Positions 1 to 624 of a stretch of DNA of 624 bases are shown piece by piece. The position numbers were made by a program, and so were the translations under genes. The first letter of the stretch is position 1. Every line of letters begins with the position of its first letter. The stretch lies in sequence record DQ006821.1; one strand, 5' to 3'. The notes below the pieces were generated by a model that was not told the DNA's origin, made no database searches, and saw only the letters and a list, made by a program, of their open reading frames with translations. Source of the DNA: a phage.

Positions 1-20
1 TACTGAGTATGAGAGGACAT
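1..20 (+). other. 3' portion of the phage 5' untranslated leader (partial; the 5' terminus of the genome lies outside the window)
   Basis: Sequence immediately upstream of the A2 start codon; closely resembles the Qbeta leader as I recall it (...CACUGAGUAUAAGAGGACAUAUG...), with at least one difference (G at nt 10 where I recall A). The window appears to begin about 40 nt into the genome, but that offset is from memory, not computed. Confidence 0.75.
12..17 (+). promoter_or_regulatory. Shine-Dalgarno / ribosome-binding site for the maturation (A2) gene
   Basis: Purine-rich AGAGGA at 12-17 (GAGG core 13-16) followed by a 3-4 nt spacer (CAT) and ATG at 21. The spacing is short but matches the arrangement I recall for the Qbeta A2 initiation site. 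Confidence 0.7.
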
Positions 21-624
21 ATGCCTAAATTACCACGTGGTCTGCGTTTCGGAGCCGATAATGAAATTCTTAATGACTTTCAAGAGCTCTGGTTTCCAGA
101 TCTCTTTATCGAATCTTCCGACACGCATCCGTGGTACACACTGAAAGGTCGTGTGTTGGACGCCCATCTTGATGACCGCCTACCTAATGTAGGTGGTCGT
201 CAGATCAGGCGTACTCCACATCGTGCTACTGTTCCGATTGCCTCTTCAGGCCTTCGTCCGGTAACAACCGTTCAGTATGATCCCACAGCACTGTCGTTCT
301 TATTGAACGCTCGTGTTGATTGGGATTTCGGTAATGGCGACAGCGCGAACCTTGTCATTAATGACTTTTTGTTTCGCACTTTCGCACCTAAGGAGTTCGA
401 TTTCTCGAATTCCTTAGTTCCTCGTTATACTCAGGCCTTCTCCGCTTTTAATGCCAAGTATGGCACTATGATCGGTGAAGGGCTCGAGACTATAAAATAT
501 CTCGGGCTATTACTGCGCAGACTGCGTGAGGGTTACCGCGCTGTTAAGCGTGGCGATTTACGTGCTCTTCGCAGGGTTATCCAATCCTACCATAAAGGTA
601 AGTGGAAACCGGCTACTGCTGGTA
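21..624 (+). CDS. A2: Maturation protein A2 (pilus-binding attachment protein that is also the lysis protein, a MurA inhibitor) of a Qbeta-like ssRNA phage; N-terminal 201 codons only, 3'-partial
   Basis: ATG at 21-23 with an upstream SD; the frame is open with no stop to the end of the window (last complete codon 621-623). Hand translation begins MPKLPRGLRFGADNEILNDFQELWFPDLF..., which matches the N-terminus of Qbeta A2 as I recall it, with a few apparent substitutions. The other two + frames are broken by frequent stops (frame 1: stops at 4, 10, 142, 190, 262, 304, 415, 469, 493; frame 2: stops at 26 and 59, not scanned further). Full-length Qbeta A2 is about 420 aa, so roughly the first half is present. 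Confidence 0.94.
   Translation, partial: MPKLPRGLRFGADNEILNDFQELWFPDLFIESSDTHPWYTLKGRVLDAHLDDRLPNVGGRQIRRTPHRATVPIASSGLRPVTTVQYDPTALSFLLNARVDWDFGNGDSANLVINDFLFRTFAPKEFDFSNSLVPRYTQAFSAFNAKYGTMIGEGLETIKYLGLLLRRLREGYRAVKRGDLRALRRVIQSYHKGKWKPATAG
388..417 (+). other. Predicted RNA stem-loop inside the A2 coding region: 13-bp stem (12 Watson-Crick + 1 G-U) with UUUC tetraloop
   Basis: Direct base-by-base pairing of 388-400 (CUAAGGAGUUCGA) with 405-417 (UCGAAUUCCUUAG): C388-G417, U389-A416, A390-U415, A391-U414, G392-C413, G393-C412, A394-U411, G395-U410 (wobble), U396-A409, U397-A408, C398-G407, G399-C406, A400-U405; loop 401-404 UUUC. No folding program was run; the stability is inferred from stem length and composition. 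Confidence 0.55.

Follow-up and report, generated by a model that had tools for sequence, protein, structure and literature searches.

The window, that is, the whole stretch of 624 nt that was analysed, matches the genomes of Qbeta-type phages from end to end, with 97.1% identity to HL4-9 (FJ483841), 94.2% to canonical Qbeta (AB971354) and approximately 74% to M11 and MX1. Nucleotide identity over the whole window lies between 93 and 97% for 19 Qbeta-type genomes, and the window comes from a genome of Qubevirus durum, which is the genome that carries Qbeta stem-loop 6. Canonical Qbeta numbering is obtained by adding 40 to the window position; the window corresponds to approximately nt 41-664, with the first 40 nt of the genome lying outside it. 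The features with which we are mainly concerned are one gene and a hairpin within it:

21..624, plus strand: open reading frame of A2, the maturation/lysis protein, with its AUG at 21-23 and open at the window end (from the GenBank annotation of the best matches and from translation)
388..400, plus strand: 5' arm of the hairpin, CUAAGGAGUUCGA, containing the Shine-Dalgarno (SD)-like heptamer UAAGGAG (389-395)
401..404, plus strand: tetraloop of the hairpin, UUUC (UUUU in canonical Qbeta, FrBurgundy, FrHibiscus and the IMG/VR contig)
405..417, plus strand: 3' arm of the hairpin, UCGAAUUCCUUAG, an anti-SD-like sequence

The 201 A2 residues that could be translated from the window are 99% identical to those of HL4-9 A2. 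Residues 123-133 (PKEFDFSNSLV) are encoded by the hairpin, and translation shows that a preliminary description of the sequence had both this peptide and the A2 reading frame right. The same description had reported an uninterrupted 13-bp stem with a UUUC loop at 388-417, and these coordinates are exact, with 12 Watson-Crick pairs and a single G395-U410 pair. UUUC is not known to belong to the specially stable tetraloop classes. The isolated 30-mer has a minimum free energy (MFE) of -16.9 kcal/mol (z = -6.4), which was matched by none of 200 dinucleotide shuffles. Folding had been proposed as a check, and the hairpin is indeed present in both the MFE and the centroid structure of the full window, with a pairing probability of 0.98 in a 720-nt context. 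Moreover, such a stem had been called unusual for a sequence of 624 nt. When shuffles of the window were searched for at least 13 uninterrupted pairs, with G-U pairs allowed and loops of 3-8 nt, a hairpin of this kind appeared in 0.9% of 3000 dinucleotide shuffles.

The window is strongly structured overall, with a folding z of -12.7. A stem longer than that of the hairpin lies between 169-183 and 189-203, with 15 contiguous pairs including three G-U pairs, and was absent from the preliminary description. A scan of the window against Rfam at a permissive E-value returned a single match at 198-252, which is at chance level (E = 1.7; 17 bits vs. a gathering score of 59.5).

The hairpin is already known, being a mapped stem-loop of the Qbeta 5' domain. 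Its upper part coincides with an entry in the published model of the genomic RNA:

396..409, plus strand: apical 5 bp and loop of the hairpin, equivalent to Qbeta nt 436-449, stem-loop 6, CP-anchored (Chang et al., 2022, Supplementary Table S3)

In this model of the Qbeta genomic RNA (PDB 7LHD), a CP-anchored stem-loop 6 occupies residues 436-449 (Chang et al., 2022, Viruses 14:225). The apex of the hairpin is therefore among the stem-loops listed for a published cryo-EM model, a kind of source suggested earlier. Residues 436-449 read UUUGAUUUUUCGAA, and window 396-409 differs from AB971354 at two of these 14 nt. The numbering offset was validated with the nine stem-loops listed for nt 1-720, all of which fall on MFE hairpin loops in AB971354 numbering, and this makes the assignment to stem-loop 6 secure. 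When its full helix (428-457) is considered, stem-loop 6 shares genome position, reading frame, arms and loop size with the window hairpin. The virion RNA model was traced from the phylogenetic secondary structure of Beekwilder (1996), and its refinement relied on restraints from secondary structure (Chang et al., 2022). The hairpin must therefore have been present in the 1996 model. Nor is the cryo-EM model independent proof of the hairpin pairs, as a predicted secondary structure was used as a restraint. In the virion model stem-loop 6 comes to within 5 Angstrom of the capsid. Its class, CP-anchored, is the weakest type of contact (cross-correlation of <0.30 to the operator density), and it was suggested that CP-anchored loops may possibly add to capsid stability; beyond this weak contact, stem-loop 6 was assigned no function (Chang et al., 2022). 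Literature searches found no phage papers on named mutations at Qbeta positions 438, 444 or 450, and no SHAPE-type probing of Qbeta.

The relatives of the window within group III (Qubevirus durum) were compared in a set of 15 sequences, comprising the window, 11 Qbeta-type isolates, one IMG/VR contig, M11 and MX1. Scans of IMG/VR and JGI metagenomes for relatives added just two contigs, one of group III and one resembling group IV, and a protein database search for further relatives gave no matches. The canonical Qbeta segment, AB971354 nt 428-457, is CUAAGGAGUUUGAUUUUUCGAACUCCUUAG. This sequence had been given correctly in the preliminary description, and the hairpin into which it was said to fold is confirmed in AB971354. 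It differs from the window at three of 30 nt, namely 398 (U), 410 (C) and loop position 404 (U), all of which are compatible with the fold. The changes at 398 and 410 had been taken as the signature of compensatory evolution, a reading that we cannot uphold. From the window to Qbeta both are one-sided transitions (C-G to U-G and G-U to G-C, respectively), and approximately half of random stem transitions preserve pairing likewise. The proposed search for covariation also turned out negative: in the 15 sequences of group III none of the 13 pairs is changed on both sides, and the score does not exceed that expected from shuffling. With RNAalifold, the covariation term for group III is 0.02 and the pair 395-410 is absent from the consensus.

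Across group III the 30-nt core folds at -8.8 to -18.9 kcal/mol, and 95% of the cells in the alignment are paired. The pair 395-410 is mismatched in six of the 14 distinct sequences, where the codon GAG (Glu) has become GAU or GAC (Asp). Other breaks of the stem are G407U in M11, G392A in MX1 and U414C in FrMerlot; the last of these isolates has two stem mismatches and still folds at -8.8 kcal/mol. Events were counted on a neighbour-joining tree from which the hairpin columns were excluded. Approximately five events preserve pairing (398, 410 twice in a G395 background, 413 and 416) and approximately five break it (395 twice, 392, 407 and 414). This balance is what neutral stem transitions would give, and hence no compensatory signature is present. 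In the loop, the C/U change at position 404 has approximately three independent origins. With the outgroups M11 and MX1 carrying the states of the window, Qbeta is the derived form. The states of the window, an HL4-9-like strain, are apparently ancestral (C398-G407, G395-U410 and loop UUUC).

The conservation of a stem inside a gene could also reflect the protein that it encodes. Four of the hairpin pairs (389-416, 392-413, 395-410 and 398-407) set third codon positions against each other, while the remaining nine of 13 involve first and second codon positions only. When all 55,296 synonymous encodings of PKEFDFSNSL were enumerated, the median recoding was found to keep 9-10 of the 13 pairs. 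All 13 pairs form in 0.6% (uniform codon choice) to 1.0% (Qbeta codon usage) of the encodings, and just 0.2% of them reach -16.9 kcal/mol. The peptide supplies much of the palindrome, and the native codons lie far into the stable tail. It had been stated earlier that the peptide does not require the stem, which is only half right: the complete stem is found in at most 1% of encodings, but nine of its pairs come with the first and second positions. The conservation of the hairpin is in good part explicable by protein constraint, as these nine pairs follow from the conserved peptide. When every 33-nt codon window was scanned, 8% had a native sequence in the top 1%, and these cluster at four hairpins, near 78-84, 168-174, 384-390 and 477-480. 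The hairpin at 388-417 is thus one local hairpin among several that look selected. In the comparison of the window with M11, only one of the 10 hairpin codons differs synonymously, against 54% overall (P = 0.005, uncorrected and at the minimum of a sliding scan); between canonical Qbeta and M11 the divergence is four of 10, which is not significant.

Group IV (Q. faecium) was represented by SP, NL95, FI and one metagenomic contig, with eight sequences in the pair analysis. Here the homologous peptide FDYQSVIG is encoded by a different hairpin, UUCGAUUACC-ARUC-GGUAAUCGGA, which has 10 bp and a loop shifted by 5 nt, and whose 3' end falls at a nearly identical alignment column. The group IV hairpins fold at -7.9 to -11.8 kcal/mol. 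For SP, 1.4% of the encodings give 10/10 pairs and just 0.09% are equally stable. The stem is invariant bar two single breaks, and none of the 10 pairs shows a double-sided change among the eight sequences. Taking groups III and IV together, a hairpin is retained at this site in 26 of 26 sequences. In our view, the best argument for a selected hairpin at this slot is that two unrelated sequences each form an unusually stable hairpin there. Constraint on synonymous sites is seen both in the native encoding (top 0.2%, or 0.09% for the group IV analogue) and in the reduced divergence between the window and M11. Selection for local RNA structure at the hairpin is thus plausible. To this extent the earlier proposal of a selected RNA structure can be retained, on the grounds of codon choice and positional conservation but not of compensatory substitution.

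The 3' end of the hairpin adjoins one strand of a long-distance helix that closes the A2 start:

3..17, plus strand: 5' strand of the long-distance helix, CUGAGUAUGAGAGGA, including the A2 Shine-Dalgarno sequence GAGG/AGGA (13-17)
419..434, plus strand: 3' strand of the long-distance helix, UCCUCGUUAUACUCAG, the partner of the A2 ribosome-binding region (from the MFE pair list)

In the MFE structure of the window, 3-17 pairs with 434-419 with G424 bulged, at a duplex energy of -21.8 kcal/mol and a pairing probability of 0.98. A single nucleotide separates the end of the hairpin (417) from the anti-SD strand (419), and the helix closes a multibranch junction with three branches, of which the hairpin is one. 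MFE folds of the first 720 nt agree for nine genomes (Qbeta, M11, MX1, SP, NL95, BR12, FrMerlot and two FI strains), and in duplex calculations the A2 SD strand pairs with a segment 1-3 nt after the local hairpin in 20 of 20 Qubevirus genomes. The strands of the helix are CUGAGUAU/AUACUCAG in Qbeta-type genomes, CAUUACUG/CAGUAAUG in M11 and MX1, and GGAGAAUCU/AGGUUCUC in group IV; the helix closing the A2 start covaries among Qubevirus lineages. This downstream complement has reportedly been described as the control of A-protein synthesis.

The maturation gene is held silent by long-range structure (Jayant et al., 2010, citing Jacobson and Zuker, 1993; Beekwilder, 1996). Interactions that close the maturation ribosome-binding site (RBS) are found in ssRNA coliphages, both in MS2 (Groeneveld, 1995; Poot, 1997) and in Qbeta. 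The hairpin abuts such a helix, but it is a neighbour rather than a part of it. In the MS2 UCS/cloverleaf the complement lies upstream of the SD, whereas in the Qbeta-type window it lies approximately 400 nt downstream. The hairpin does not form part of the A2-closing helix, as 388-417 is paired with itself and its arms bind the A2 RBS at merely -4 to -6 kcal/mol. Competition among the hairpin arms, the A2 RBS and the anti-SD strand was considered and rejected, given these values against -18.6 kcal/mol for the hairpin and -21.8 kcal/mol for the helix. Nor is the hairpin needed for the helix at equilibrium: in silico, synonymous recoding of the hairpin leaves the helix at a probability of 0.94-0.98, with the A2 SD equally buried.

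Several specific roles were tried on the hairpin itself. The heptamer UAAGGAG binds the 16S 3' tail at -8.6 kcal/mol, which ranks it fifth in the Qbeta genome, so that it is not the strongest SD-like site there. In silico, synonymous recoding of the hairpin raises the unpaired probability of UAAGGAG from 0.001 to 0.5-0.6. Internal initiation after this motif was rejected, as the sole candidate start is AUU at 400-402, in a 5-codon frame ending with UAG at 415-417. Stimulation of a programmed -1 frameshift was likewise rejected, since a conserved slippery heptamer (X XXY YYZ) is lacking 5-9 nt upstream of the stem; the +1 frame ends at that UAG too. The nearest U-rich run, C UUU UUG (365-371), is a non-canonical heptamer lying 16 nt upstream of the stem, and in canonical Qbeta it presumably reads CUUUCUG. 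Kissing of the UUUU/UUUC loop with the A-rich loop at 488-501 was examined by eye and set aside, since it would consist of A-U pairs only and is unconserved in group IV. The hairpin has no preference for the plus or the minus strand: four isolates carry G-U pairs, which favour the plus strand, and three carry A-C mismatches, which favour the minus strand.

Two classes of known elements invite comparison with the hairpin. The Qbeta coat operator reportedly has a 3-nt loop with an essential adenine. Like the coat operator and operator-like packaging stem-loops, the hairpin is short and is situated close to the inner face of the capsid. It differs from the operator in its 4-nt pyrimidine loop (UUUC or UUUU) without adenine, its bulge-free 13-bp stem and its CP-anchored class. 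The hairpin does not qualify as an operator-like packaging signal, and a coat-operator role is unlikely. The engineered heSD hairpins at the Qbeta coat start resemble it in that an SD-like strand is paired with an anti-SD-like strand, and a hairpin of approximately -7 kcal/mol was reported to silence an SD (Jayant et al., 2010). The stem described here is far more stable than this level. Unlike the heSD hairpins, however, the motif of the window lies inside a coding region with no start codon after it, and the feature is absent from group IV.

Taken together, the hairpin is the strain-variant copy of the known Qbeta stem-loop, and it is probably maintained because selection favours a folded structure at this place. 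It most likely serves as a generic structural module in the compact domain that is closed by the A2-silencing helix, and makes a weak contact with the capsid. Under such selection, it would be foldedness rather than a specific sequence or ligand that maintains the hairpin, and the tolerance of single mismatches suggests that selection may act on having a stable hairpin and not on each pair. The compact 5' domain would gain approximately 17 kcal/mol from the hairpin, which probably also stacks on the A2-closing helix or sets its position, and which may hold UAAGGAG, the SD-like motif, against its anti-SD-like partner strand. Within the virion, the hairpin may rest against the coat shell in a weak contact that is not operator-like.

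Other readings of the same data have to be weighed against this one. That the hairpin helps the A2-closing helix to form in a kinetic or architectural sense is unlikely, if still worth consideration. Here it would form before the anti-SD strand leaves the replicase, stack on the helix, and tune the closure of the A2 RBS and with it the dose of lysis protein. Both the spacing of 1-3 nt between hairpin and anti-SD strand, kept in 20 of 20 genomes although the two species differ in hairpin sequence, and the covariation of the helix itself speak for such a link, but the helix is independent of the hairpin at equilibrium and the cross-pairings (-4 to -6 kcal/mol) are weak beside the hairpin (-18.6) and the helix (-21.8). 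We consider it unlikely that the hairpin serves mainly to bury UAAGGAG, by which it would block the docking of 30S subunits inside the A2 gene and their competition in cis with the weak A2 start. Of the matches to the 16S 3' tail in Qbeta RNA the motif is indeed one of the best five, its unpaired probability rises upon recoding (from 0.001 to 0.5-0.6), and the cis-competition result of Jayant et al. is compatible with such a role. However, four stronger SD-like sites exist elsewhere in the genome, and AAGGAG is retained even though the synonymous AAA GAA would abolish the motif. GAU or GAC in seven isolates weakens motif and stem alike, and the group IV hairpin encloses no SD-like sequence, which leaves conservation across the genus unexplained.

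That the hairpin recruits a coat dimer during assembly, as the replicase operator does, is quite improbable. A gap of no more than 5 Angstrom separates stem-loop 6 from the capsid in the Qbeta virion model, and stem-loops of the 5' half were proposed to nucleate co-replicational assembly (Chang et al., 2022), but the contact belongs to the weakest, CP-anchored class with a cross-correlation of <0.30 to the operator density. In group IV the loop has yet another sequence, ARUC. Moreover, a 4-nt loop without adenine does not agree with the 3-nt loop and essential adenine that the operator is said to have. At the other extreme, PKEFDFSNSL may simply happen to be encoded by a near-palindrome, with an RNA fold that has no selected role. 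The nine pairs set by first and second codon positions, the 9-10 pairs kept by the median recoding, the lack of covariation and the equal frequency of breaking and preserving substitutions would all agree with this. Nevertheless, we hold a mere by-product of the protein to be very improbable: the native encoding is in the top 0.2% for stability, the unrelated group IV peptide FDYQSVIG is also encoded by a hairpin at the corresponding position (top 0.09%), and synonymous divergence between the window and M11 is lowest in the hairpin codons.

A more ambitious proposal would make the hairpin a dedicated part of A2 dosage control, in which a clamp mimicking an SD/anti-SD pair, set 1 nt ahead of the real anti-SD strand, times the loading of ribosomes on the A2 start during plus-strand synthesis and keeps the internal SD-like site from competing in cis, with a functional equivalent in group IV. 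The computations presented here give no support to a dedicated A2-control role, and we regard the proposal as having little probability. The preferred reading remains the generic structural module, and as such the finding matters little: it is the re-identification of a mapped stem-loop, in a natural strain variant, of a very well-studied RNA genome. It does serve as a reminder that one-sided transitions compatible with G-U pairing are not to be taken as compensatory evolution, and it shows that natural Qbeta-type isolates tolerate one or two mismatches in the hairpin stem. Better evidence for selection is found in the codon choice, together with the independently built group IV hairpin at the corresponding slot. 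Should the adjacency to the anti-SD strand prove to be functional, the hairpin would be an added component in the control of A2, the single-gene lysis protein of Qbeta.

The hairpin at window 388-417 (5' arm 388-400, 3' arm 405-417) is discussed here alongside the following features of the window and its relatives.

Window 3-17 with 419-434: long-distance helix with the A2 Shine-Dalgarno sequence buried within it.
Window 169-203: hairpin of 15 contiguous pairs, three of them G-U, closed by a loop of 5 nt.
Window equivalents 380-384 and 419-421: predicted GGC/GCC extension of the stem in M11 and MX1.
Window 393-395: codon occupied by an Asp codon (GAU/GAC) in BR12, VK, GIII_C, the IMG/VR contig, FrMerlot, FrBurgundy and FrHibiscus.

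Codon 393-395, which lies in the 5' arm of the 388-417 hairpin, is polymorphic for Glu and Asp, being GAG in the former case and GAU or GAC in the latter. The change at position 395 has at least two origins, and with either Asp codon the central stem pair is lost and the Shine-Dalgarno-like motif UAAGGAG (389-395) is weakened too. Recurrent, homoplasic changes were observed at positions 410 and 404. U410C has arisen about four times (Qbeta, GIII_C, VK and BZ1), and in two of these origins it faces a U, where pairing cannot be restored; the loop change C404U has about three origins.

In M11 (419-459) and MX1 (418-458) the stem contains one internal mismatch apiece. For both phages the GGC/GCC extension, of 3 bp, is predicted at the stem base beyond a small internal loop, and it returns the 42-nt fold to about -16 to -17 kcal/mol. 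The RefSeq entry NC_001890.1, labelled 'Escherichia phage Qbeta', gave match coordinates, identity and score identical to those of the MX1 genome (AF059242.1) and is only about 75% identical to the Qbeta-type genomes in the window region; numbering or sequence drawn from it would therefore not be that of canonical Qbeta.

In a metagenomic group IV-like contig (L027, MAVO01000006.1, 480-503), the hairpin carries GAC in place of GAU, creating a C-A mismatch on the plus strand and a G-U pair on the minus strand. Since U414C in FrMerlot and G392A in MX1 behave in the same way, the stem is not preserved in a strand-specific manner.

A longer local hairpin than that at 388-417 is present at window 169-203 (arms 169-183 and 189-203). 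For the native 33-nt segment the folding energy is -22.7 kcal/mol, a stability equalled by none of 300 sampled synonymous recodings, and the apex of this hairpin is Qbeta 220-232, stem-loop 4, classed as 'CP-sandwiched' (Chang et al., 2022). Throughout the Qbeta genome (AB971354), only one other hairpin, at 3234-3263, combines an uninterrupted 13-bp stem with a loop of 4 nt; it has an apex matching the operator-like stem-loop 44 (3242-3255; Chang et al., 2022).

The long-distance helix between 3-17 and 419-434 is predicted at -21.8 kcal/mol (P = 0.98), and its counterpart is re-formed from other sequences in M11 and MX1 and in group IV. Comparative support is far clearer for this helix over the A2 Shine-Dalgarno sequence than for the 388-417 hairpin.
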